NCBI GenBank assembly: GCA_965205425.1
Contig: CBDBGZ010000009.1
Coordinates: forward strand, 576,001 to 640,000
From: Nitrosopumilus sp.
Lineage (GTDB): Archaea > Thermoproteota > Nitrososphaeria > Nitrososphaerales > Nitrosopumilaceae
DNA: 64,000 nt
Direction of reading: 5' to 3'
Shown here: positions 3,490-23,341 of the stretch, in pieces
Layout of the letters: the number at the start of each line of letters is the position of its first letter
Position numbering within the stretch: position 1 is the stretch's first letter
Notes under the pieces: generated by a model
What the model was told of the DNA's origin: nothing
The model's database searches: none
What the model saw: the letters and a program-made list of their open reading frames with translations, nothing else
Made by a program: the position numbers and the translations under genes

Positions 3490-4170
3490 TTAATTCACCT
3501 TAGCATATTCTAATAATTCTTTTCCATCAATTAATGGAATTCCATTTTGTTTTGCAAATTTTTCAGCCTTATCAACAGATAGGGCAGCATAAGTTTCAGC
3601 ATCCATCATTTCACAAATTGCAGTAACAGGCGTTAAACCTGCAACTTGAGCTAAATAAACGGACATTTCTGTATGTCCTTGGCGTGCAGCTAACAAACCT
3701 TTGGATGCAATTAACAATGGAACATGTCCTGGAGTTTTAAAAGAAGAAGCAAACTTTTTCTGTTTATTTTCAACATTATAGATTTTAGCCATTTCACTAA
3801 TTGTTAAAGATCTATCTTTATCGGTAATTCCAGTGTATGTTTGATAATGATTTACAGACAATGAAAAAGTAGGATGATCGCCATATGGTGTCAATCCCAT
3901 TATCATTTCTTTATTGGAAATTGATGATTCTGAAAGAATTTCATGCATGTATTGTAACTCGAGTGACGTTGCAAAATTATTATCAATTGCAATGCATAAT
4001 AATCCACCAGCATTTTGACGCATTCGGGCTATATGTTCAGGTGTGACAAATTCTGCAGCTACTACCATATCAATTTCATTTTCTCTACCTGCTGAATCAA
4101 ACAACAAAACAAATTCACCACATTTCAATGATTGCAGTGCAGATTCAAGTGACATATGGAAAAACTTCAT
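3490..4170 (-). CDS. ribB: 3,4-dihydroxy-2-butanone 4-phosphate synthase
   Basis: GRENEIDM, TGITDKDR, FKTPGHV, RQGHTE and ICEM motifs. Confidence 0.95.
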   Translation of the reverse strand: MKFFHMSLESALQSLKCGEFVLLFDSAGRENEIDMVVAAEFVTPEHIARMRQNAGGLLCIAIDNNFATSLELQYMHEILSESSISNKEMIMGLTPYGDHPTFSLSVNHYQTYTGITDKDRSLTISEMAKIYNVENKQKKFASSFKTPGHVPLLIASKGLLAARQGHTEMSVYLAQVAGLTPVTAICEMMDAETYAALSVDKAEKFAKQNGIPLIDGKELLEYAKVN

Positions 4171-4232
4171 AATCTAATTATAAAGTTTACTAAAAAAATA
4201 GTAATTACCACTAAAATTGTAGATAATTGGCT

Positions 4233-4817
4233 TTATTTTAGAATGTATTTTCCAAGAATGTCAGTTTCAATATTAACTTTGTCGCCTATCTTTTTAGTTT
4301 GAAAATTTGTTACATCAATAGTATGTGGAATTAATGAAACTGATGCAAGAGAATTTTTAACATTAACAACTGTTAAACTAATTCCATCAATTGCAATAGA
4401 ACCCTTTTTCACAACATATTTGGACAATTTTTTAGGAACATTAAACCATACTTGTACTTCTTTAGGTTTTTTTACAATTTTTTTAATTATTCCTACACCA
4501 TCAACATGACCCAAAACAAAATGTCCCTCTAAACGTTCACCAGCTTTCAAACTACGTTCAATATTTACAATTCCTCCAACTTTTAAATTTCCAAGATCAG
4601 TTTTTTTAGTAGTTTCCTCAATCATTTCAAAAATACAACTAGATTTAGAAAGTTTTGTTGCGGTAAGACAAACTCCATTTAATGCAACACTTTGTCCAAT
4701 TTTTAATCCCTTTCCATATTTTCCTAAATTTACAGTCATTTGAATAGCACTACGGTTTTTAGTATTTTTAGAAATTTTTTCTACTTTACCAATTCCTTCA
4801 ACAATTCCTGTAAACAT
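4233..4817 (-). CDS. ribE: Riboflavin synthase (bacterial-type alpha chain)
   Basis: N-terminal MFTGIVE, NGVCLT, GHFVLGHVDG and KGSIAIDGISLTV. Confidence 0.95.
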   Translation of the reverse strand: MFTGIVEGIGKVEKISKNTKNRSAIQMTVNLGKYGKGLKIGQSVALNGVCLTATKLSKSSCIFEMIEETTKKTDLGNLKVGGIVNIERSLKAGERLEGHFVLGHVDGVGIIKKIVKKPKEVQVWFNVPKKLSKYVVKKGSIAIDGISLTVVNVKNSLASVSLIPHTIDVTNFQTKKIGDKVNIETDILGKYILK

Positions 4818-10372: not shown

Positions 10373-10423
10373 AATGGTATCTAAAAGTAGACCTAAAAAT
10401 TGGTTCTTATAAGAATTGAAAAA

Positions 10424-10497
10424 TGCAGTCAGCGGGATTCGAACCCGCGTCACAGGGTTGGAAACCCCGAATACTAACCAGGCTATACTATGACTGC
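10424..10497 (-). tRNA. tRNA-Gly(TCC), no encoded CCA
   Basis: Reverse complement GCAGTCATAGTATAGCCTGGTTAGTATTCGGGGTTTCCAACCCTGTGACGCGGGTTCGAATCCCGCTGACTGCA folds as a cloverleaf with anticodon TCC and a GTTCGAATC T-loop. Confidence 0.95.
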
Positions 10498-10518
10498 AAT
10501 AGAATGCAAATTTTATTT

Positions 10519-10531
10519 CCTACATAAAAAT
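10519..10531 (+). repeat. Left attachment-site core CCTACATAAAAAT
   Basis: Identical to 23377-23389. Confidence 0.75.
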
Positions 10532-10714
10532 TTTGTACTGTTACAGAAAATTCAAATTCATCTAGATAATATTGTTGTATAAAATTGATATAATAATTTG
10601 ATAATTGTATCACGTATTTATTAGATTCCTAGATTGTATTAAGTCTTTTTTCTAGTCTTGTTTGTATTACAATATTTTTTCTTCTATTCATACAAAACAA
10701 TCACCAACGAAAAT

Positions 10715-10877
10715 AAACTCCAACAATTATTTTTTCCAAAATATTTCCAATAAACCTAACCAATGCGTTGGAGTTTGTTGGAGTGATTTTCTATGCCTAC
10801 AAAATCTGTATTTCTATGCCTAGAAGTCCAAGTTAGTAATGTTTCAACGAATGACAATAAAGTTGGAACTCCAACAA
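10715..10877. repeat. Cluster of short direct/inverted repeats near the island's left end
   Basis: ACTCCAAC at 10717 and 10868, GTTGGAGT at 10767 and 10777; TTTCTATGCCTA at 10788 and 10811. Confidence 0.55.
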
Positions 10878-11016
10878 AATTCAGTTTTTTATTAGTGATG
10901 ATGTTAAAAATGATTTATTCTTCATTGTAATTCCAAATAATATTTCATACAAAATAAAACAAATGTATTTTTTCCAATGCTATCTAAATATTCGAGTTGT
11001 AAATTATTTATTGATT

Positions 11017-12571: not shown

Positions 12572-13504
12572 CTATTGGATTTCATTTTTATGCATTATCT
12601 TTTTGAATTCTTCAAACATCTCATCTATAGTTGGAGTAAAATAAACTCCGTCAAGGCCATTTTTGTGTCCTAGCAGTTTTTCAGCAATATTATAATTTAT
12701 TGAATTGTCAAGCTTGAGAATAGTGTTGAATCGTTTTCTAAATCCATGATCTATTTGTACATCATAACGATTATCTTGCTTGCATTTTCTTATGTTACTT
12801 TTTGATACTGCCCTATACACAACACTTCTGCTGCCGCTCCATCCAAGCTGTTTCATAGTTTTTCCTATTGTAAAAATCGGAGCATTACTGTCAAATATTT
12901 TGTTGCTTTTTCTGCGTTGATCATGATATGTATCTAATAATCTTGATGCTTGTGGAGTGAGAAATGCCCAGTATTCTTCTATGTGTCCTGCATACAACAA
13001 TATTGCATAACAACCACATGGCATTTTTTTCATATGTCTAATAGCTAATGGATGATCAAAGACTCCTATTCTTGCTCCAGTTGATGCAAGAAAATGAATC
13101 AATGCTTTGTCTCTAATGTTTTTTGTATTGTACAGTATCTCTTTGATTTCATTTGTTGTATATGCCCTCAAGCTAGGTGTCTTTTGTTTTTGTGGAAACA
13201 TCTTGTATATTATGTTCCAATTAAGATTGATTCTATTCATCACAAAAAAATGCTTTATTCCTCTAAACTTTGATGGTATGGAATTTGGGTTTGCAGTATG
13301 TTTCAAGTATAAAATATAATTTTCCAACATAACCTGCAAATCATTTGTGGGAAATTCTAACCATTGATTCTCATCATGTATACCAGTAAATTTTTTGAAT
13401 TGATTAAGATGCGATATATAATTTTGCTTAGTATATTTTGATCGTATAGATTCCTCAAATAAGATCATGCTTCTTTGTGATATATTTTTGATCAAGTACC
13501 ACAT
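12572..13504 (-). CDS. Tyrosine recombinase/integrase (candidate hsdS invertase)
   Basis: Catalytic residues STGARIG (R), HGFRK (HxxR), LLGH (H) and GVYF (Y). Confidence 0.9.
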   Translation of the reverse strand: MWYLIKNISQRSMILFEESIRSKYTKQNYISHLNQFKKFTGIHDENQWLEFPTNDLQVMLENYILYLKHTANPNSIPSKFRGIKHFFVMNRINLNWNIIYKMFPQKQKTPSLRAYTTNEIKEILYNTKNIRDKALIHFLASTGARIGVFDHPLAIRHMKKMPCGCYAILLYAGHIEEYWAFLTPQASRLLDTYHDQRRKSNKIFDSNAPIFTIGKTMKQLGWSGSRSVVYRAVSKSNIRKCKQDNRYDVQIDHGFRKRFNTILKLDNSINYNIAEKLLGHKNGLDGVYFTPTIDEMFEEFKKIMHKNEIQ

Positions 13505-13552: not shown

Positions 13553-13790
13553 TCATGTTATCAATTTATTTTCATAATCATCAACAAACTTTTCTCTAGA
13601 TATCTCGACATCAGATAGTATTCCATGTTGAGTTCCAACTGGTAGTAATCTATTTCCAGCTGGCACAGTTGTAAACACTGTTTTGTTTCTTAATGTTGCA
13701 TGACTTCCTTTTCGTCTGGTAATGGCAAACCCTTTTCGCTGCAGATATCTTATCATTTGATTTCCAGATACCTTTTGGTATCTTTGACAT
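13553..13790 (-). pseudogene. hicA: HicA-family mRNA interferase toxin with an apparent +1 frameshift near the 5' end
   Basis: GF..RRKGSH..L...TTVP motif; ATG at 13790 overlaps the hicB stop (TAATG) but is 1 nt out of frame; removing one base at 13771-13776 gives MSKIPKVSGNQMIRYLQRKGF. Confidence 0.75.
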
Positions 13791-14002
13791 TATTGCTCTA
13801 TTATGAGCATGTTAAAGTCCGTTGGACTTTCACACTCTTCGGCTGCAAGATCCACTGCCTCTTTCATGTTTTCCATTATCTCTCCAAATGTATCGCCTTC
13901 TGAGTTTGCATGTAGTTCATCACATCTTCCAACAAATCCCCCGCCCTCAAGATCTTTGGTTATGATAACTGTGTATGTCTTTTTTTGTAGGGTTGTACTC
14001 AT
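13790..14002 (-). CDS. hicB: HicB-family antitoxin (short form, no C-terminal DNA-binding domain)
   Basis: YTVII.KDLEGGGFVGRCDEL.ANSEGDTFGEIMENMKEAVDL matches the HicB N-terminal domain. Confidence 0.85.
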   Translation of the reverse strand: MSTTLQKKTYTVIITKDLEGGGFVGRCDELHANSEGDTFGEIMENMKEAVDLAAEECESPTDFNMLIIEQ

Positions 14003-14352
14003 GTTATTTGTAATCTAGAAAGTGTTAAAAATATTGCTAGTCTTATGCATTTTTTTATGGTAATACATATCCTACAACAAGAATTTGGTGTTCAACTCCA
14101 AAGAAAATAGCTGAAAAAGATGATTTGTTGTTATCAGTACGTGCTCCTGTAGGTTCTACAAACTTAAGCTCTGAACAATGTTGTATAGGTAGAGGATTAG
14201 CTGCAATCAGACCTATGGATAAAAATATGAATGTAATATTTTTCTTTCATTTTTTTAGACACATTGAACATCATTTGGAAAGTTTAGGAACAGGAACTAC
14301 ATTCAAAGCAATTTCAGGTAAACAAATAAGAGAATTATCTATAACTTTACCT

Positions 14353-14625
14353 CCACTAAACGAACAAAAACGCATCGTCTCAAAAATTGAATCAATCTTC
14401 ACACAGATTGATGCAGCAAAGATACAGCTTGAGATGTTATCATCGCAGGTCAAGTCATCTTCTAGTAGCTTGAATATGTTGAAGAACAGCGTGCTAAAGC
14501 AAGCCTTTGAAGGTAAGCTTGTTCCACAGGATCCAAATGACGAATCAGCAGAAGTCTTGTTGAAGAAAATTCATGGCGATTCAAAGGAATTGAAATTTAA
14601 GAAAGAGAATCTTCCAAAAGGATGG
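14353..14625 (+). repeat. IR1 left arm (273 bp), perfect inverted copy at 20895-21167
   Basis: Base-by-base comparison; encodes the central conserved region PLNEQKRIV...KENLPKGW. Confidence 0.95.
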
Positions 14626-15069
14626 GTAAAAACAAAGATAGAATTGATTTGTGATCTCATAGGTGGTGGCACTCCTTCAAGGAAAAATTTAGAATATTTT
14701 AAAGATGGTCAAATAATTTGGTTAACACCAACTGAAATCAATAAAGAGAAAATATTAAAAATTAATTCTTCTAAAGAAAATATTACAGAATTAGGATTAA
14801 CAAAAAGTTCCGCTAAATTAATACCTAGAAATGCAGTTTTATTAACATCTAGAGCTAGTATAGGATATGTTGCAATAGCAGAAACAACAGTTACAACAAA
14901 TCAAGGATTTGCTTCATTCATATGCTCTAAAATTATCCATAATTATTTTTTAGCTTATTGGTTAAAGAGTAATAAAAATGTCTTAGAAGAACATGCAACA
15001 GGAACAACATTTAAGGAAATTCCCAAATCTGTGATCAAAAAACTATCTATTGAAATTCCACCATTTTCT

Positions 15070-15124
15070 GAACAAAAACGCATCGTCTCAAAAATTGAAT
15101 CAATCTTTGATAAGATTGATGCAA
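15070..15124 (+). repeat. IR2 left arm (55 bp), perfect inverted copy at 20402-20456
   Basis: GAACAAAAACGCATCGTCTCAAAAATTGAATCAATCTTTGATAAGATTGATGCAA present on opposite strands. Confidence 0.95.
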
Positions 15125-15349
15125 AACAAAAAGAGATTGCAATCTTAGAATCCAAATTAAAAAATATACCTGATAGCATAAATGCCATAAAAAGCAGTAT
15201 TTTGAAGCAAGCTTTTGAGGGAAAATTAGTTCCACAAGATCCAAATGATGAACCCGCATCAATTCTATTAGAAAAAATAAAATCTCAAAAATGCAGATCA
15301 TAAATATAATTACTACTGAAATAATTGATGGTAATTTTTGAATAAATAA

Positions 15350-16828
15350 TTATTTTGGAATTTCTTTAGATATGATATTCTTTACATCCTCAAACGCTTT
15401 GATTATATCTTTTCTTATACTGATGAATGAATCTATCAATTCATCTGGTGGCAGTACAATTGTTTCTGTCACATCGTTTGGATTATTGGAATCAAGATTA
15501 TAATCTTGAATATCTTTGATATTTACTTTCCATGCATTTTTATTTGTCTTTTTATTTTTAAACCATTTTTCAATCTCTGAAAAATCCTCATATGCAATTG
15601 GATTTGATTTAGTATATTTTGGATTTTTTGCACGGGTGACTCCTCTTAATCGCTCATTTACATGCATCTGATAATACCATATTTCTTTGGTAGGAGTGGT
15701 TTTATCAAAAAATAAAATATTTGTGGCAATTGTTGTATATGGTTCGAAAACGGTTCTAGGAAGTCTAATTATTGTATGCAAGTTAAATTCTTCAATTAAT
15801 TTTTTCTTGATCTTGGCAGCCATTCCTCCTGCAAACATTGGACCATCTGGAAGAATAATCCCACAACGCCCTCCATCTTTTAATGAATACATGATATACA
15901 ACAAAAATGCAAGTGCAGTGTCTGATGTTTGAAAACCAACAGGCAAATTAGATGATATTCCTTCTTCTTCTTCTCCACCAAATGGAGGATTTGTGATGAT
16001 GATATCATATTGATTGTTTACAGATATTTCTCTTAATGGTTTAGCTAGTGTATTAGTTCTGATAATGTTTGGTTTGTCAAGTTCATGTAATAATGAATTC
16101 ATCATCCCCAATAGATATGGCATTGGTTTTTTCTCAATTCCAAATAATGTCTTGGTTGTTAATTTTTTCAAGTCATGTTTTGTCTTTTGTTCATTTCTTA
16201 GAAATTCTAGAGATTCTATCAAAAATCCTCCTGTGCCACATGCAGGATCCAATATTTTTTCAGATTTTTTGAGACTTGGGTTAATTTGATTGACAATAAA
16301 TCTAATCACAGGTCTTGGTGTATAAAATTCGCCATTAGAACCAGCAGCATCTCTCATTTCTACTAACATATCTTCATAGAGTTTTGCCATTGTGTGAATA
16401 TCATCAGTATTTACAAAATTTACTTTGTCTATCAGATTTAGAATTTGTCTAAGAACATATCCACTTAATATCCTGTTGTTTAATTCTTTAAAGATTGATG
16501 CAAGTACATCTCTTTGTTCAAAACCCTCTCCTCCTACCAATTTTGCAAGTTTAGGAAATAATTCATTATTGACAAAAGAAATTAGATCAGGGCCTGTCAA
16601 AGATTTACTTTTATCTTCAGCCCAATCTCTCCATTGTAATCCTTTGGGAATTGCCTCGACATATTTTTTATTCAATGCTGTTCTTTCTTTTTCAAAATCA
16701 TCAAAACTCTTTAAAAATAAAATCCATGCAATTTGAGGGATTCTATCGACATCCGTATTAAGACCTGCATCTTTTCTCATTAGATCTCTTGCAGATTTTA
16801 TTATAGAACGAAGTGTTTGTGCATCCAT
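15350..16828 (-). CDS. hsdM: Type I R-M N6-adenine methyltransferase subunit
   Basis: GEFYTPRPV, motif I DPACGTGGFL and motif IV NPPFGG. Confidence 0.95.
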   Translation of the reverse strand: MDAQTLRSIIKSARDLMRKDAGLNTDVDRIPQIAWILFLKSFDDFEKERTALNKKYVEAIPKGLQWRDWAEDKSKSLTGPDLISFVNNELFPKLAKLVGGEGFEQRDVLASIFKELNNRILSGYVLRQILNLIDKVNFVNTDDIHTMAKLYEDMLVEMRDAAGSNGEFYTPRPVIRFIVNQINPSLKKSEKILDPACGTGGFLIESLEFLRNEQKTKHDLKKLTTKTLFGIEKKPMPYLLGMMNSLLHELDKPNIIRTNTLAKPLREISVNNQYDIIITNPPFGGEEEEGISSNLPVGFQTSDTALAFLLYIMYSLKDGGRCGIILPDGPMFAGGMAAKIKKKLIEEFNLHTIIRLPRTVFEPYTTIATNILFFDKTTPTKEIWYYQMHVNERLRGVTRAKNPKYTKSNPIAYEDFSEIEKWFKNKKTNKNAWKVNIKDIQDYNLDSNNPNDVTETIVLPPDELIDSFISIRKDIIKAFEDVKNIISKEIPK

Positions 16829-16862
16829 TAGTGATATTTCCTATATCCTCATTAAATATGAT

Positions 16863-19229
16863 TCAATTATTCAAGTACAATTCTTTTGTTAATTGTACTA
16901 TGGCATCATCATATTGATCACCATCTTTGAATCTATCATTAATAATTTCTACTGGACCTCCAAACTGTTTGAATTGTGGCAATTTCAAAATATCTCTTTC
17001 TTCTAATTCTTGATATCCATGATCAGCATAATGATCTAAAATTATCTCAAGAACTTCTCGTGCCTTATCTGGATATTTCTCCAAAAAGGGTTTTTTACGC
17101 ACAGAATTTACTCTTTCTAAACGAGTTTTTGCATCTGCATTAAATGCAAAATGAAGTAACAAATCAAATGCATCTGCTTTAAACATCTGTGTAATTTCTC
17201 TTAGATGTTCAAAATTTATTCCTCTAGTTTTTAATTTTTCGACAAAATGTTTTCGATTTTCAGGATTCGTCCAAAGTTTGTATAGTTCTGTTTGATCATC
17301 ATTAATCAAACGACGTACAGTCTCTTTTGTATAATTCTGATAAGTAATTAATCTGTTACCATCTATTGATTGATCAAATATCAATACAGATTCACCTATA
17401 ATCTTAACTTCATGTCCTTCAATATGATAAGTTTCAATATTTGTTGGATCTCTGGATGTAGAGGATATTCCTTCTTCTATCTTCCTTCTTTCTTCTTCCA
17501 TTCTCTTTTTTACTTTTTCCTTCATCCTGTCTTCTTTTTCTCTGGTAATTCTTTCTTGACCTTCATCTGTTTCAGCAGCAGGTGGACCATCCCATTCTAC
17601 ATCTTCAAATAATCGAGTTGTTTTCCTATAATCTATAATAGAAAACCACATCTTGTCCTTCGGTTCATACACACGTGTGCCACGTCCTATTATCTGTTTA
17701 AATTCGGTCATAGAGTTAATGCTTTTATCTAATGCAATTATTTTACATGTAGGTACATCTACACCAGTAGACATCAATCTAGATGTTACTGCAACAACTG
17801 GAAAATCTCTATTAGGTTCTTGAAAATGATCTAAATGTTCACGACCTATTTCTCCTTCAGCAGAGACTATTCTAACACAATAATCATGTTTTTCTCCAGA
17901 ATAATTTCTGATCAATTTAGTCATTTCAAGTGCATGTTCAGAATTCTGGCAAAATAGAATTGTTTTATTATATTTTTGATTATTTTTTTCTAAAAAGTTT
18001 ACCAGATGCATTGCAACTGCTTTTCGTCTTTCATTTACTCTTAAAATTCTGTCAAAATCTTTGTATGTATACAATCTATCTTCCAATATTTTTCCATCAA
18101 GATCTTTTTCACCTGGTTTTGGTTTGTATCCTTGTATATCAATTTCAAGATTTACTCTATGAATCATGTATGGTGCTAAAAAGCCATCCTCAATTCCTTG
18201 TTTAAGGCTGTACGTGTATACAGGTGTGCCAAAATAATCATAGGTGTCTTTGCTTTCATCATTTCGTTTAGGTGTTGCAGTCATACCTATGTGGATTGCA
18301 TTAGAAAAATGATCCAGTATCTTCCTCCAATTCCCAGATTCATTTGAGCTTCCACGATGACATTCATCTATTATAACATAATCAAAAAAATCTGTTGGAT
18401 ATTGTTTGTATAATTCACCGTTTTCTTTTTCTACATCAAGTGCTTGATATAATGCAAAATACATTCCAAATGCAGTTTGTACAACTCTTTGGATTTTATG
18501 TCTTGCTTCACCAAAATTTGCAAATGCATTATTTCTTGCTTGATCCAATAAAATAGTTCTATCTGCTAAAAATAAGATTTTTGGATGTGGTTTATCTTTA
18601 TTCCATAATTTTTGTGCAATTTGATAAGCAATGAAGGTCTTGCCTGTTCCTGTTGCAAGATTCAACAAAATTCGTTTCTTTCCTGCAAAGATTGATGTTA
18701 ATGCTGCATTGATTGCAATTTCTTGATAATATCTTGGTTCCATAGGTGACCCACCAGGATCTTTTGAGCTTCTATCTAATGGTTCCAACAGAACATTCAT
18801 TTGTTTTTCATCAAAATTCTTATGTCCGTTATATCTTTTTTGTAACTCTTCGGGTGTTGGGAATTTATCAATTGTTCTTTGTTGTTTTGTTGTAACATCA
18901 TATTCTTCAATTTTTTGTCCATTAGTTGCATATGCAAATTGTAGGTTTAGTTTTTCTGCATATATCAAAGCTTGTTGCATTCCTTCATCATGAGGTTTAT
19001 CCCATGCCTTTGCTTCGATCACTGCAATTTTAAAATCAAGTCCTAGTTTTAAAATATAATCTGCTTTATTTGGATCATTCCGTTTTCCTGTACGACCCTC
19101 TGGAATGATTTTTCCTTTATTAATATAATATTCACGAACGATTTTATCTAATTCCCATCCAGAATCTTTCAATTTTGGATCAATAAAACGCATACAAGTA
19201 GTTGATTCTGAAATCTTTTCGTTGCTCAA
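16863..19229 (-). CDS. hsdR: Type I R-M restriction subunit (EcoAI/EcoEI-like, type IB size)
   Basis: Nuclease ADY..IEAK, RYYQ, Walker A ATGTGKT, DECHRG, TATP, TGVD and QIIGRGTR. Confidence 0.95.
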   Translation of the reverse strand: MSNEKISESTTCMRFIDPKLKDSGWELDKIVREYYINKGKIIPEGRTGKRNDPNKADYILKLGLDFKIAVIEAKAWDKPHDEGMQQALIYAEKLNLQFAYATNGQKIEEYDVTTKQQRTIDKFPTPEELQKRYNGHKNFDEKQMNVLLEPLDRSSKDPGGSPMEPRYYQEIAINAALTSIFAGKKRILLNLATGTGKTFIAYQIAQKLWNKDKPHPKILFLADRTILLDQARNNAFANFGEARHKIQRVVQTAFGMYFALYQALDVEKENGELYKQYPTDFFDYVIIDECHRGSSNESGNWRKILDHFSNAIHIGMTATPKRNDESKDTYDYFGTPVYTYSLKQGIEDGFLAPYMIHRVNLEIDIQGYKPKPGEKDLDGKILEDRLYTYKDFDRILRVNERRKAVAMHLVNFLEKNNQKYNKTILFCQNSEHALEMTKLIRNYSGEKHDYCVRIVSAEGEIGREHLDHFQEPNRDFPVVAVTSRLMSTGVDVPTCKIIALDKSINSMTEFKQIIGRGTRVYEPKDKMWFSIIDYRKTTRLFEDVEWDGPPAAETDEGQERITREKEDRMKEKVKKRMEEERRKIEEGISSTSRDPTNIETYHIEGHEVKIIGESVLIFDQSIDGNRLITYQNYTKETVRRLINDDQTELYKLWTNPENRKHFVEKLKTRGINFEHLREITQMFKADAFDLLLHFAFNADAKTRLERVNSVRKKPFLEKYPDKAREVLEIILDHYADHGYQELEERDILKLPQFKQFGGPVEIINDRFKDGDQYDDAIVQLTKELYLNN

Positions 19230-19344
19230 TTTATACTCCTAATTTTTAGATTTATGATGGTTATAAAATAAATCATTATTAATACAACATATTTGTGACA
19301 TCCTAAAAATATTTTAGATGATTTAATGAAAAATATAATATAAA

Positions 19345-20274
19345 TCAAATATTATGTCCATAAATTTGAGAAAATGAATGATATGTTTTATGGCCTTGTA
19401 GAAACCATGATAAAATAACAAAATCTAATTTTCTAATCCTGTAAGCATTGTATGCAATTAACCTGTACAACATCTCATTGTCCTGAGTTGTAACATTTCT
19501 TGATGTGACATCTCCTGACATTATCTGTTTGATCACAAAAAAGATTGTTTCAGATTTGTTTCTCTGATGGTACAATTGTACAGGAAAGTTCCTCTTCATC
19601 TCCTTTCTGTGAATTCCGCTGGTTCTGTAAATTGGAACTGTTCCATATCGAGTTGGAATTATTGCAGCTGTGTTGATCTGTTCTGCACCAACATGGTTAT
19701 TCTCATCATCAAAACCCATGTCACCTAACACAATATCAACTGGAACAATATTGTTGGTTTTGTACAACAATGGCAGAAAATCAGGATTATCATGTTGCAT
19801 GTTGTGGTGTGTCATGACACAGCAAACAAGCTGTGTATTCATGTCAGCACAAACAACAACTTTTAGGAAATTCCTGCGTAACTGTACTCTTTTTGTATAA
19901 TAGTATGATGCTGTACTGTAACTGAATCCGCTACCATCAATTCCAGCTAGAACCAGTCTGACTTTTTTGTACAAAATGAATTCCTGCAACATTTTATGTA
20001 ACAGATTTCCTTCCAGTCTTGCAGCTGCCTTTTGTAGTGTGGTGTAATGTGGAATGGTATACAAACCAAGATATTCCTGAATTCCTACACATTCTTCTAA
20101 AAATTCTGTAAATCTTCTATAACTCTTTGATTCGTACTGTCGTATTGTCAAGAGTATGAGATGTGTCCAAACAGAATAGATATGATTTGATTTTGGATGT
20201 AAGAACCTAGGAATTCTGCATCTGGTGATTATATTGAGTAGTGTTTTGCACATTTTGACGTATGATGAGACCAT
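19345..20274 (-). CDS. IS5-family DDE transposase (reads through the IS end)
   Basis: PHYTTLQK, IDGSGF, LGDMGFD and YHQRNKSETIF motifs. Confidence 0.9.
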   Translation of the reverse strand: MVSSYVKMCKTLLNIITRCRIPRFLHPKSNHIYSVWTHLILLTIRQYESKSYRRFTEFLEECVGIQEYLGLYTIPHYTTLQKAAARLEGNLLHKMLQEFILYKKVRLVLAGIDGSGFSYSTASYYYTKRVQLRRNFLKVVVCADMNTQLVCCVMTHHNMQHDNPDFLPLLYKTNNIVPVDIVLGDMGFDDENNHVGAEQINTAAIIPTRYGTVPIYRTSGIHRKEMKRNFPVQLYHQRNKSETIFFVIKQIMSGDVTSRNVTTQDNEMLYRLIAYNAYRIRKLDFVILSWFLQGHKTYHSFSQIYGHNI

Positions 20275-20362
20275 ACTGTAATCTGCAAATACAATCCTAA
20301 TGGATCTAAATTAGCTAAAATGTATCACAATTGGGTTAAAATCAGATGGTTTCTACAAGGCC
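19392..20362 (-). mobile_element. IS5-family insertion sequence (971 bp)
   Basis: 17-bp perfect TIR GGCCTTGTAGAAACCAT; 9-bp TSD ATGTTTTAT at 19383-19391 and 20363-20371. Confidence 0.92.
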
Positions 20363-21629
20363 ATGTTTTATAAATTATTTTATCTCTCATAGATACTATA
20401 CTTGCATCAATCTTATCAAAGATTGATTCAATTTTTGAGACGATGCGTTTTTGTTCGTTTAGTGGTGGAAGTGGAACCACTACTTGTTTTATTTTTTCTT
20501 GGCTAATGTTTTTTTGAGCTCCTCCAAAACCAATTCTTATCAAATCATTTCTTATTGATTTTAAAAATAAAAATAAATATGAATTGCTTATTATTTTTTG
20601 ATTATTAAATATTGCACATATTGCTTGATTAGTTGATGCGGGAAAACCAAGAATTGATAATTTGCCTATAGTAGCTCCATACATTGCCATTAAAATGGTA
20701 TTTTTAGGATGAAGCACAGCATTGGATTTTTCTAGACCCAATTGACTAATTCTTTCTTCACACTCTAAGATTATAGAATCATTTAACTCTCCTGATTTGA
20801 TCCACGGCACATCTCCTTCAAAATAATTTGAATTCTTTCGTGATGGTGTACCCCCACTTTTTGTTGTACAAATCTCATCAATAGTTGTTTTAATCCATCC
20901 TTTTGGAAGATTCTCTTTCTTAAATTTCAATTCCTTTGAATCGCCATGAATTTTCTTCAACAAGACTTCTGCTGATTCGTCATTTGGATCCTGTGGAACA
21001 AGCTTACCTTCAAAGGCTTGCTTTAGCACGCTGTTCTTCAACATATTCAAGCTACTAGAAGATGACTTGACCTGCGATGATAACATCTCAAGCTGTATCT
21101 TTGCTGCATCAATCTGTGTGAAGATTGATTCAATTTTTGAGACGATGCGTTTTTGTTCGTTTAGTGGTGGAAGTGGAACCACTACTTGTTTTATTTTTTC
21201 TTGGCTAATGTTTTTTTGAGCTCCTCCAAAACCAATTCTTATCAAATCATTTCTTATTGATTTTAAAAATAAAAATAAATATGAATTGCTTATTATTTTT
21301 TGATTATTAAATATTGCACATATTGCTTGATTAGTTGATGCGGGAAAACCAAGAATTGATAATTTGCCTATAGTAGCTCCATACATTGCCATTAAAATGG
21401 TATTTTTAGGATGAAGCACAGCATTGGATTTTTCTAGACCCAATTGACTAATTCTTTCTTCACACTCTAAGATTATAGAATCATTTAACTCTCCTGATTT
21501 GATCCACGGCACATCTCCTTCAAAATAATTTGAATTCTTTCGTGATGGTGTACCCCCACTTTTTGTTGTACAAATCTCATCAATAGTTGTTTTAATCCAT
21601 CCTTTTGGAAGATTCTCTTTCATATCCAT
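20325..21629 (-). CDS. hsdS: hsdS copy B: intact start, TRD-c, conserved region, identical TRD-c, no normal C-terminal helix
   Basis: MDMKENLPKGW start (ATG 21629 or 21623); two identical TRDs; HsdS similarity stops at ...FDKIDA (20402). Confidence 0.85.
   Translation of the reverse strand: MDMKENLPKGWIKTTIDEICTTKSGGTPSRKNSNYFEGDVPWIKSGELNDSIILECEERISQLGLEKSNAVLHPKNTILMAMYGATIGKLSILGFPASTNQAICAIFNNQKIISNSYLFLFLKSIRNDLIRIGFGGAQKNISQEKIKQVVVPLPPLNEQKRIVSKIESIFTQIDAAKIQLEMLSSQVKSSSSSLNMLKNSVLKQAFEGKLVPQDPNDESAEVLLKKIHGDSKELKFKKENLPKGWIKTTIDEICTTKSGGTPSRKNSNYFEGDVPWIKSGELNDSIILECEERISQLGLEKSNAVLHPKNTILMAMYGATIGKLSILGFPASTNQAICAIFNNQKIISNSYLFLFLKSIRNDLIRIGFGGAQKNISQEKIKQVVVPLPPLNEQKRIVSKIESIFDKIDASIVSMRDKIIYKTWPCRNHLILTQL
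20402..20456 (-). repeat. IR2 right arm (55 bp)
   Basis: Reverse complement of 15070-15124. Confidence 0.95.
20419..21621. repeat. 501-bp perfect direct repeat (20419-20919 = 21121-21621), the duplicated TRD-c
   Basis: Line-by-line comparison shows identity at offset 702 bp. Confidence 0.95.
20895..21167 (-). repeat. IR1 right arm (273 bp)
   Basis: Reverse complement of 14353-14625. Confidence 0.95.
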
Positions 21630-21690
21630 GCTTCCAGAGTCATAATTTCTATTTTTACCTAAATCATTCAATATTAACTGTGTAACAACT

Positions 21691-21837
21691 ATTAAAGAAC
21701 AAAAGCAAATTGTATCAATCCTGTCTGGAGTTGATGCATACATTCAGAAAAACCAAGAATATAAGGAAAAGCTGGAGATTCTAAAAAAAGGACTTATGCA
21801 AAAATTGCTAACTGGAAAGATCCGCGTAAAGGTATGA
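21691..21837 (+). pseudogene. hsdS: C-terminal relic of a third, divergent hsdS
   Basis: IKEQKQIVSILSGVDAYIQKNQEYKEKLEILKKGLMQKLLTGKIRVKV* is a typical HsdS C-terminus; no upstream TRD or ATG. Confidence 0.8.
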
Positions 21838-22381: not shown

Positions 22382-23341
22382 CTAATTGCTGATTTTTTCA
22401 TTTATCAGCAAATCAGATTCAAATTCAATATATTTTTTCAACTTTTCATCTAATGTCAATCTATCATACACTAACAAATCTCTTGCCTGCTCTTGTCCTG
22501 CAAAATATTTTGCTAGATTTGGATCATGTCTTGATACTTTGGTTATAAAAAATGCCCTAAAACTGTGAGTTGTTATCTTGTGACGACCTGATTCATATTT
22601 TTGATCGAGGTTAATTCGTTTAAGATATTTGGTTAATATCAACTGATAATGATTACTAACATTTGTAGGCTTTGTCTTGCCACGGAAAAATACATAGTTC
22701 TCATCATTCAATCTTTTCAGAATTGGTTTTAGCAAAGGTGTAACCTCTTTGCTAAAAAAAGTCACTCTTGATTTCTTTGTTTTAGTTATGCTGGCAGGAA
22801 CATTTACTATTATCCTCTCCTGCGTAGTATCTAGATCTATTTTTCGTAACTGCAACAATTCTCCTCTTCTTAATCCACTGGATAGTTGTGCTAGGATTTT
22901 CAATCTATTTTTATTGTTACTCACCTCCAATATTCTTCTAATCTCTTCTTTTACTAGGGGATATTTTTCCTCATTAACTTGATGTGGAAAGTTTAGCTCA
23001 TCTGCTACATCTTCTTTTGTGATTTTTATATTATGATATCTGAGATATTTTTTCATATATGAAAAAACTGTAGGGATACTGTTTGGATAGATTCTCTTGT
23101 TATTCCAGTTGAGCCATTCTTGCAAGGATTCATAGACTGTTTCCATCTCGACTTTTTGATATTCTGTTATGGTCTCATCAATTGTTTTACCATATTTTTC
23201 CTTGCAAAATATCTCAAAATTCTTTATTGCTGATCTTATAGAATTTTGTGTACTTGTTGCTTTTGTTTGTATCATTTCCTCAAAACTCTTGCGATCTTTG
23301 GACTTTCGTAGAAAGGTAGACATTTTATTAATATCTACCAT
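22382..23341 (-). CDS. Tyrosine recombinase/integrase (likely island integrase)
   Basis: SGLRRGE, TKTK, HSFR, FAGQ (in place of LGH) and VYDR; starts 36 bp from the right att repeat. Confidence 0.9.
   Translation of the reverse strand: MVDINKMSTFLRKSKDRKSFEEMIQTKATSTQNSIRSAIKNFEIFCKEKYGKTIDETITEYQKVEMETVYESLQEWLNWNNKRIYPNSIPTVFSYMKKYLRYHNIKITKEDVADELNFPHQVNEEKYPLVKEEIRRILEVSNNKNRLKILAQLSSGLRRGELLQLRKIDLDTTQERIIVNVPASITKTKKSRVTFFSKEVTPLLKPILKRLNDENYVFFRGKTKPTNVSNHYQLILTKYLKRINLDQKYESGRHKITTHSFRAFFITKVSRHDPNLAKYFAGQEQARDLLVYDRLTLDEKLKKYIEFESDLLINEKISN

Follow-up and report, generated by a model that had tools for sequence, protein, structure and literature searches.

In the hsd loci of Mycoplasma pulmonis, the genes follow the order hsdS-hsdR-hsdM-inverted hsdS and the HvsR recombinase acts at two kinds of site, vip and hrs, while in the SpnD39III/ivr locus of Streptococcus pneumoniae the invertible DNA does not include hsdR or hsdM and every state is productive. 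Here we describe a type I restriction-modification (R-M) locus from the archaeon Nitrosopumilus sp., carried by a stretch of 64,000 nt (hereafter the window; assembly GCA_965205425.1, contig CBDBGZ010000009.1, positions 576,001-640,000 of the forward strand), and compare its design with these and other described systems. The inversion of hsdS in M. pulmonis is cited by Huang et al. (2020; PMC7672463), and the pneumococcal locus, also called cod, is described there and in PMC4948785 as a locus in which one hsdS is expressed and partial copies are silent, with inverted repeats and with a tyrosine recombinase, CreX/PsrA/IvrR, encoded next to them. Huang et al. (2020) further describe epigenetic invertons with clade-2 invertases, for which truncated HsdS after inversion, and with it an ON/OFF methylome, is predicted; the hosts in this survey belong to bacterial phyla only and 91.9% of them are host-associated (PMC7672463).

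As in M. pulmonis, two facing hsdS genes flank hsdR and hsdM in the window, the sites lie inside hsdS, and an inversion would reverse the enzyme genes. Unlike in M. pulmonis, the system belongs to an archaeon, its recombinase is encoded next to it and not elsewhere, the sites are 28-bp dyads of 11-6-11 layout within a KIESIF..IDA motif, and there is a single shared C-terminal tail, so that some states would be OFF. It shares the arrangement of the pneumococcal locus, with expressed and partial silent hsdS copies, inverted repeats in the conserved regions of hsdS and a neighbouring tyrosine recombinase, but here hsdR and hsdM are inside the invertible DNA and two of the four states are without a complete HsdS. 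Truncated HsdS states are predicted as they are for the clade-2 invertons, although in a marine-type ammonia-oxidising archaeon (archaeal amoA is found on the window's contig with an E-value of 2e-116, which makes the host an ammonia oxidiser). We put at roughly 65% the probability that this locus serves to switch the specificity subunit of a type I R-M system through recombinase-driven inversion at two sites; in this genome, the switch is without a complete specificity gene and partly degraded.

Genes were called as open reading frames (ORFs) of the window and labelled by Pfam profile search. Between the two facing hsdS copies lie hsdM (15350-16828, minus strand; N6_Mtase E 2e-64, HsdM_N E 6.4e-8) and hsdR (16863-19229, minus strand; ResIII E 3.9e-37, EcoEI_R_C E 2e-29), which provide the N6 adenine methylase with its HsdM_N domain and the ResIII/helicase motor of a type I R-M system. 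The remaining feature of such systems, an intact HsdS with a start, two target recognition domains (TRDs) and central and C-terminal conserved regions (CRs), is missing from the locus as assembled and appears solely after an in-silico flip. The first copy, hsdS-A (ORF 14125-15303, plus strand, with the frame open from 14056; Methylase_S E 1.4e-43), has no credible start and has lost about the first half of TRD1, of which the C-terminal part remains; it reads partial TRD-a', site 1, CR1, TRD-b, site 2 and the sole complete CR2 tail of the locus (15125-15303, plus strand; 59 codons plus stop). The second copy, hsdS-B (ORF 20325-21743, minus strand; Methylase_S E 1.5e-64), is the expression-site copy; from ATG GAT ATG at 21629 down to 20325, it reads start, TRD-c, site 1, CR1, TRD-c, site 2 and 25 unrelated codons, without CR2 as assembled. 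Its two TRD-c units are 98.8% identical over 520 nt. Past a common ...KIESIFDKIDA, hsdS-B thus runs into unrelated codons and hsdS-A into the conserved tail.

The two copies are linked by two pairs of perfect inverted repeats, IR1 (273 bp; arm A at 14353-14625, arm B at 20895-21167) and IR2 (55 bp; arm A at 15070-15124, arm B at 20402-20456), with complementarities of 273/273 and 55/55 and neither pair extendable by a single base, giving the combination of opposed hsdS genes and intragenic inverted repeats in one locus by which inverting hsdS loci are recognised. A 25-nt ENLPKGW box at 14601-14625 is, in addition, a perfect inverted match to 21597-21621 in the N-terminal part of hsdS-B. Inverting 14626-20894 in silico (the IR1 flip) produces a 470-aa HsdS from the hsdS-B start, consisting of TRD-c, CR1, TRD-b and the full tail, and inverting 15125-20401 (the IR2 flip) a 468-aa HsdS of TRD-c, CR1, TRD-c and the full tail; after either flip hsdR and hsdM are reversed, with hsdM on the plus strand. 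The double flip, in adjusted coordinates, leads to a truncated 436-aa product, so that two of the four states are productive and the assembled state is among those without a complete HsdS.

The original prediction had drawn most of this geometry: hsdM and hsdR between convergent hsdS copies, a perfect 273-bp and a nested perfect 55-bp inverted repeat, complementary losses in the two copies (start and N-terminus in one, C-terminus in the other), a tyrosine recombinase about 550 bp away, and flips at IR1 and IR2 that would yield TRD-c with TRD-b and TRD-c with TRD-c while reversing hsdR and hsdM. The repeat coordinates, the ORFs and Pfam matches, the comparison of the tails, a measured distance of 552 bp and the in-silico products bear all of it out. 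Its idea that the assembled orientation may be an OFF state fares less clearly: it agrees with the lack of a complete hsdS in the assembly, but the partial degradation of the locus fits a dead switch just as well.

A set of short sites adds to this picture. We scanned the whole window for dyads of 11-6-11 layout with at least 10 of 11 complementary arm positions and compared the outcome with shuffles. Four dyads were found, against a shuffle mean of 1.45, and all of them lie at the four TRD/conserved-region boundaries: site 1A (TGAATCAATCT-TCACAC-AGATTGATGCA; TRD1/CR1 boundary, 14388-14415, plus strand), site 2A (TGAATCAATCT-TTGATA-AGATTGATGCA; TRD2/CR2 boundary, 15096-15123, plus strand), site 2B (20403-20430, minus strand, with the spacer TTGATA on that strand) and site 1B (21105-21132, minus strand, with the spacer TCACAC on that strand). 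In the whole 2.2-Mb genome, these four alone match the site pattern. Their coding content is (K)IESIF..IDA, and the right arm of site 2 ends one base before the end of IR2. Inside one gene, sites 1 and 2 are direct repeats with unlike spacers; across the two hsdS genes, like sites are inverted and their spacers identical. Tyrosine recombinases need spacer identity between partner sites, and with this layout inversion is therefore predicted between like sites and no deletion between unlike ones. The dif sites of Xer recombinases have the same 11-6-11 layout, and the recombinase encoded beside the locus finds its best family match in archaeal XerA; unlike in Xer/dif, there are four sites per locus, they lie within coding sequence, and their arrangement in inverted pairs leads to inversion and not to resolution.

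That recombinase, rec1 (12572-13504, minus strand; 310 aa), ends 552 bp before 14056 and is the candidate hsdS invertase. PF00589 is precomputed for the protein, for which our own search gives Phage_integrase at E 1.4e-5 and 25.4 bits, just under the cut-off of 27.1; its best NCBIfam match is the archaeal XerA equivalog NF040815 (E 1.2e-13), at 51.2 bits against a cut-off of 220, so that it is Xer-like but not a XerA orthologue. The residues R145, H253-x-x-R256, H280 and Y288 are invariant in 13/13 rec1 homologues, and rec1 thus combines a profile match with the R...HxxR...H/W...Y signature of tyrosine recombinases and supplies the adjacent site-specific recombinase typical of inverting hsdS loci. 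At E<=1e-10 its clade counts 861 proteins (the best 120 of them at >=58% identity), for which none of the sources consulted gives a clade name. Searching rec1 against PDB sequences at E<=1 returned no matches, and an AlphaFold2 model built from 13 sequences was too poor for use (mean pLDDT 49.1, below 50 in the catalytic half).

The design recurs in related genomes (in what follows, loci are denoted by L, genomes by G and contigs by C). The R-M backbone of the window is also found in two chromosome-level Nitrosopumilus records, L012 (HsdM 99% identical) and L013 (85%), where an hsdS truncated just past site 2 is followed by hsdR, hsdM and a facing full-length hsdS, the latter at the position of hsdS-A, and where the outer genes are rec1 on one side and a second tyrosine recombinase, int2, or its remnant on the other. 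More distant HsdM relatives, from metagenomes and other phyla, show the ordinary co-directional order hsdR-hsdM-hsdS. Methylase_S matches occur in 36 of 120 other genomes of the genus, many of them as facing pairs, and 20 such regions were retrieved for comparison. In L086, L087, L089, L090, L091, L092, L094, L095, L098, L100 and L101, rec1 homologues (59-73% identical) lie beside or between facing hsdS genes, and the HsdM encoded there is 26-31% identical to that of the window. Counting intact, near-full-length copies at >=53% identity in the 120 other genus genomes, at least 14 of 21 copies of the rec1 clade lie within 2.5 kb of a listed Methylase_S match, a lower bound because six Methylase_S matches are unlisted.

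The sites follow the recombinase: the pattern is present in 12 of 14 rec1-bearing loci versus none of the nine retrieved loci without rec1. The two exceptions, L087 and L090, carry a second type of box, TGCGTCAATCC-N6-GAGTTGACGCA, by eye a 9/11 dyad. The site pattern is absent from 42 other HsdM-related loci (281,661 nt), and in a scan of 401 genomes of the family, three or more sites per genome are found in this genus alone (G000 and eight others), the other 26 genera (302 genomes) having at most two per genome (G331, counted among the 401, has one match, and none of the claims made here depends on it). Eleven loci are paired, namely those of the window, L012, L013, L086, L089, L091, L092, L094, L095, L098 and L101. 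In all eleven, the site-1 spacer is equal between the two copies (variants TCACAC, TCTCAC, TCTCCC and TCGCAC), and so is the site-2 spacer (TTGATA, TTGACA, TTGGCA, TTGGTA and TTGCCG, with a sixth variant in the unpaired L100). Also in 11/11, exactly one copy has a tail, of 55-66 codons and bearing LK..LK.AFEG.LV, and the other stops after 15-46 unrelated codons. These unrelated tails are themselves alike between some loci (that of the window equals that of L012, L013 resembles L094, and L086, L091 and L098 resemble one another), which indicates that the arrangement was inherited and did not arise through independent accidents; the open frame of the truncated copy exceeds 400 codons in both the window and L013 despite 15% HsdM divergence. 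We give even odds to the broader proposal that Nitrosopumilus has a genus-wide programmed inversion system, with an Xer-derived recombinase clade, dif-like KIESIF..IDA sites, spacer-coded partners, a shared tail, and both ON/OFF and specificity switching.

Comparison with L012 and L013 also reveals possible traces of past recombination. In the window the two copies of CR1 are 100% identical, and in L012 they are 98.4% identical over 860 nt; across these two genomes the identity of CR1 is only 82-84%, versus 99.3% for hsdM-hsdR, a pattern that would fit concerted evolution of the two copies. The 99.3% block (window 15070-19391 against L012:5438-9759) begins exactly at 15070, the start of IR2 arm A, and past an insertion sequence (IS; discussed below) continues at 95.4% over 20363-20471, ending some 15 nt past the outer side of IR2 arm B (20456); outside the block identity is 70-85%. 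This points to a putative recent horizontal replacement of the tail-hsdM-hsdR module, bounded by the site-2 boxes. Several loci lose homology at the right arm of site 2 or no more than about 10 nt from it. Likewise, TRD-b occupies position 2 in the window (14626-15069) and position 1 in both L012 copies (4170-4600 and 10460-10890), at 90.8% nucleotide identity and with near-identical protein, and appears to have moved between the two halves of the hsdS gene. Finally, relative to the outer markers rec1 and int2, the hsdR-hsdM segment is reversed in L013 when compared with the window and L012, although between flanks that are not strictly conserved.

In the mechanism that we propose, rec1 would pair like sites, of the same spacer and in inverted orientation, and invert the DNA between them. 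An inversion at site 2 (~5.3 kb) would carry the single tail to hsdS-B and give a TRD-c/TRD-c subunit, and one at site 1 (~6.7 kb) would carry TRD-b plus the tail and give TRD-c/TRD-b; the unlike spacers would block events between sites 1 and 2, which would delete a TRD. Transcription of hsdR and hsdM would presumably start from a promoter of their own, and inversion may still be ongoing in this organism. With the tail on the 5'-deleted copy there is no complete HsdS, and methylation and restriction should both be off. The invertible-switch interpretation of the original prediction, which relied on architecture and predicted products, is thus strengthened by the dyads, the conserved design, the linkage to rec1 and the mosaic boundaries, and weakened by the partial degradation. 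Its label "shufflon-like" applies loosely to two nested invertible segments with two classes of site in hsdS, but not in the strict sense of the R64 Rci shufflon, where sfx-type short repeats bound several independently invertible segments and the genes are of the pilV type.

Several observations weigh against an inversion switch. Inversion was not observed: six public runs contain the locus, all as k=31 Logan contigs, and in the four compared (X2, X4, X5 and X6) the contigs end at the repeat edges, leaving orientation unreadable, as a flip between repeats of more than 31 nt does not alter the set of k-mers. In the consensus state neither hsdS is intact, the 5' end of hsdS-A is gone, and an IS5-family element sits between hsdS-B and hsdR, all of which would be seen equally in a decaying locus. 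In L012, hsdS1 is frameshifted. The match of spacers within each locus is in part a by-product of repeat identity, and the loci compared are related and not independent. Seven of the 21 intact rec1 copies have no adjoining listed hsdS match (G235, G252, G165:C50 and G177, which are fragmented assemblies, G167, and two in G226), and rec1 of the window falls under both the Pfam and the XerA cut-offs. In L013, rec1 is turned and the HicAB pair found beside it in the window is missing, so that the comparison of the inner segment is made without strictly conserved flanks.

The contigs of the public runs contain two odd joints, one from 15108 to 14506 (equivalent to 15108 to 21014; anchored by 39 nt, at a depth of 1188 in X4 and of 70 in X2) and one from 21173 to 20892 (depth 13-15). 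Inversion at IR1 or IR2 was rejected as their source, as it creates no new 31-mers. CR1 and CR2 of hsdS-A share a single exact repeat of >=14 nt, a 38-nt box.

The 5' deletion of hsdS-A, the IS and the lack of an intact hsdS make a serious rival of a frozen remnant, that is, a locus that descends from an inversion switch but whose arrangement is now fixed and whose R-M system is dead; we regard this as unlikely, yet deserving of weight. The gene that has lost its start and about half of TRD1 in the window has full-length counterparts in L012 and L013, no complete hsdS is present in the assembly, and HsdM matches at E<=1e-50 are found in 2 of 150 other genomes of the family, which makes the locus accessory, and its loss would be tolerated. 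The IS, of 971 bp (19392-20362, minus strand; NF033579 above cut-off, ORF at 19345-20274) and overlooked by the original prediction, is found about 160 bp upstream of hsdR, and its full-length copies in this genome number 21, at 98.6-100% identity; its terminal inverted repeats are 17 bp long, and a 9-bp target duplication, ATGTTTTAT, is present at 19383-19391 and 20363-20371. The insertion nevertheless spared the 160 bp in front of hsdR, rec1 is intact and has kept every catalytic residue, hsdM and hsdR are intact too, with 99.3% identity to their L012 counterparts, both repeat pairs are perfect, all four dyad sites are preserved, and one flip restores a full gene in silico. Nor is the element the cause of the truncation of hsdS-B, a possibility that we considered and rejected: it starts 39 bp past the end of IR2 with a clean 9-bp duplication, and in L012, where the matching position is free of the IS, the tail is truncated in the same way, so that the insertion does not explain the loss of the C-terminus.

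Elsewhere in the genome, several copies of this IS are without matching target duplications and share half-duplications with another copy (GACCACAGT is common to those at C5:167434-168404 and C5:172743-173713, and GTACAGTTC to those at C9:232636 and C7:102609), which suggests IS-mediated inversions or rearrangements.

Less probable still is that there is no dedicated invertase, the repeats being the conserved regions of paralogous hsdS genes that exchange by homologous recombination or gene conversion, and rec1 being an island integrase. The repeats do coincide with HsdS conserved regions, integrase-like genes stand at both ends of the island with a tRNA-Gly nearby, and recombination at spnIII of S. 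pneumoniae is reported to be independent of all known site-specific recombinases (PMC6620402). Protein constraint does not, however, account for the dyad symmetry at the nucleotide level, which is missing from the 42 related loci, and several loci show homology that stops at the right arm of site 2 or no more than about 10 nt from it. Against a role of rec1 as island integrase speak its position between the hsdS copies in L086, L087, L091 and L095, its association with hsdS pairs across unrelated HsdM backbones, and the fact that the island edges are marked by a different recombinase, int2. An assembly artefact, with the IR1-bounded segment truly in the other orientation (and an intact hsdS) or the population mixed, is very improbable, for although a perfect 273-bp inverted repeat is longer than short reads and the k-mer contigs of four runs leave the matter undecided, the independent chromosome-level L012 is the same at site 2 (the copy upstream of hsdR has the truncated tail and the copy facing hsdM the full one), IR2 is just 55 bp and spanned by ordinary reads, and 21 near-identical 971-bp IS copies are placed inside contigs of up to 1.2 Mb, which suggests long-read assembly.

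The locus is on an accessory island of a Nitrosopumilus-group ammonia oxidiser. The second recombinase, int2 (22382-23341, minus strand; Phage_integrase E 1.7e-16), which the original prediction had missed, adjoins the core gene EMG1/NEP1 at the island edge; with homologues at the edges of L012, L094, L096, L098 and L100, it is probably the island integrase. On the other side, a tRNA-Gly (TCC) is found at 10423-10498, about 2 kb from rec1. Between rec1 and hsdS-A lie a HicA toxin gene (13553-13756, minus strand; HicA_toxin E 3.7e-7) and a HicB-like antitoxin ORF (13790-14002, minus strand; no family matches), and such a pair accompanies rec1 in seven loci (window, L012, L086, L087, L090, L091 and L100), where it may stabilise the recombinase-hsdS module. 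A DNA-level search detected no second hsdM or hsdR of this kind elsewhere in the window's genome. Contig C5 holds a second, degraded island (C5:116126-120863), with an N-terminal fragment of int2, an IS copy, a paralogue of window orf224 (62% identical) and an hsdS of 205 aa with a single TRD.

A weaker third dyad, TGTATCAATCC-TGTCTG-GAGTTGATGCA (8/11), is located at 21711-21738 of the window, about 85-110 nt upstream of the hsdS-B start; its opposite strand resembles the EQK.I.SILSGVD box of a second hsdS family, and it is kept in L012:10998-11032 and near C5:120340-120395 of the same genome. A further dyad, ATCAATTT-CACCAC-AAATTGAT, is found as a single copy per genome in several of the family's other genera (e.g., G082:C5:106609, G042:C3:37868 and G349:C1:173182); it may be the chromosomal dif site and the source of the hsdS sites. 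In the window's own genome, no clear candidate for a dif-like ATCAATTT-N6-AAATTGAT site was found. The assembly that contains L013 (G201:C1) also contains L094 (G201:C3, a 10.6-kb contig), with rec1 and int2 flanks and the same truncated tail. The R-M backbone of L094 differs, however (HsdM 31% identical), and its inverted repeat is perfect over 739 nt; L094 may be an alternative allele of the L013 island in that population. In L013 itself, the truncated hsdS is separated from hsdR by a 179-aa ORF (L013:4620-5159) that looks, by eye, like a TATA-box-binding protein.

Candidate archaeal hsdS switches are already in print. The supplement of the REBASE survey by Atack et al. (2020; PMC7394358) lists many archaeal hsdS genes, and its supplementary files 2 and 3 flag S2.NmaSCMORF606P of Nitrosopumilus maritimus SCM1 as having a 39-bp inverted repeat in S1. 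The present locus is thus not the first archaeal candidate. The SCM1 pair belongs to the same genus, shares an inverted repeat between two hsdS genes and is likewise a computational candidate; unlike here, its repeat is 39 bp long and lies at the 5' ends of both genes. In the portions consulted, the entry comes without a description of recombinase, site structure or conservation, and archaea are not named in the main text among the terms searched (PMC7394358). One systematic inversion scan covers bacteria only (PMC9881135); a long-read survey comprises 42 archaeal data sets (Euryarchaeota and Crenarchaeota) and reports 12 archaeal invertons, and in the parts available to us it describes no hsdS among them, citing Atack et al. 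for archaea (PMC10028968). In the Nitrosopumilus/Thaumarchaeota literature we found no description of such an hsdS switch, nor do the available parts of two reviews describe one in archaea (PMC11033074, PMC13076061). The statement that no characterised archaeal example is known therefore stands for experimentally characterised systems in the literature we searched, but not for computational candidates (PMC7394358).

What is new here are the 28-bp dyad sites, the two-site, one-tail design across the genus, the linkage to a recombinase, and the IS5 insertion. The proposal can be put to concrete tests, as it names a 28-bp site, a recombinase that may act there and a rule by which spacers would determine the choice of partner. 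For this genome alone, it means an R-M system that currently has no specificity subunit. If the genus-wide inversion system is real, it would be the first programmed inversion system described for Nitrososphaerota, and stochastic switching of virus defence, and possibly of the methylome, would extend to free-living archaea and to the abundant ammonia oxidisers of the sea.

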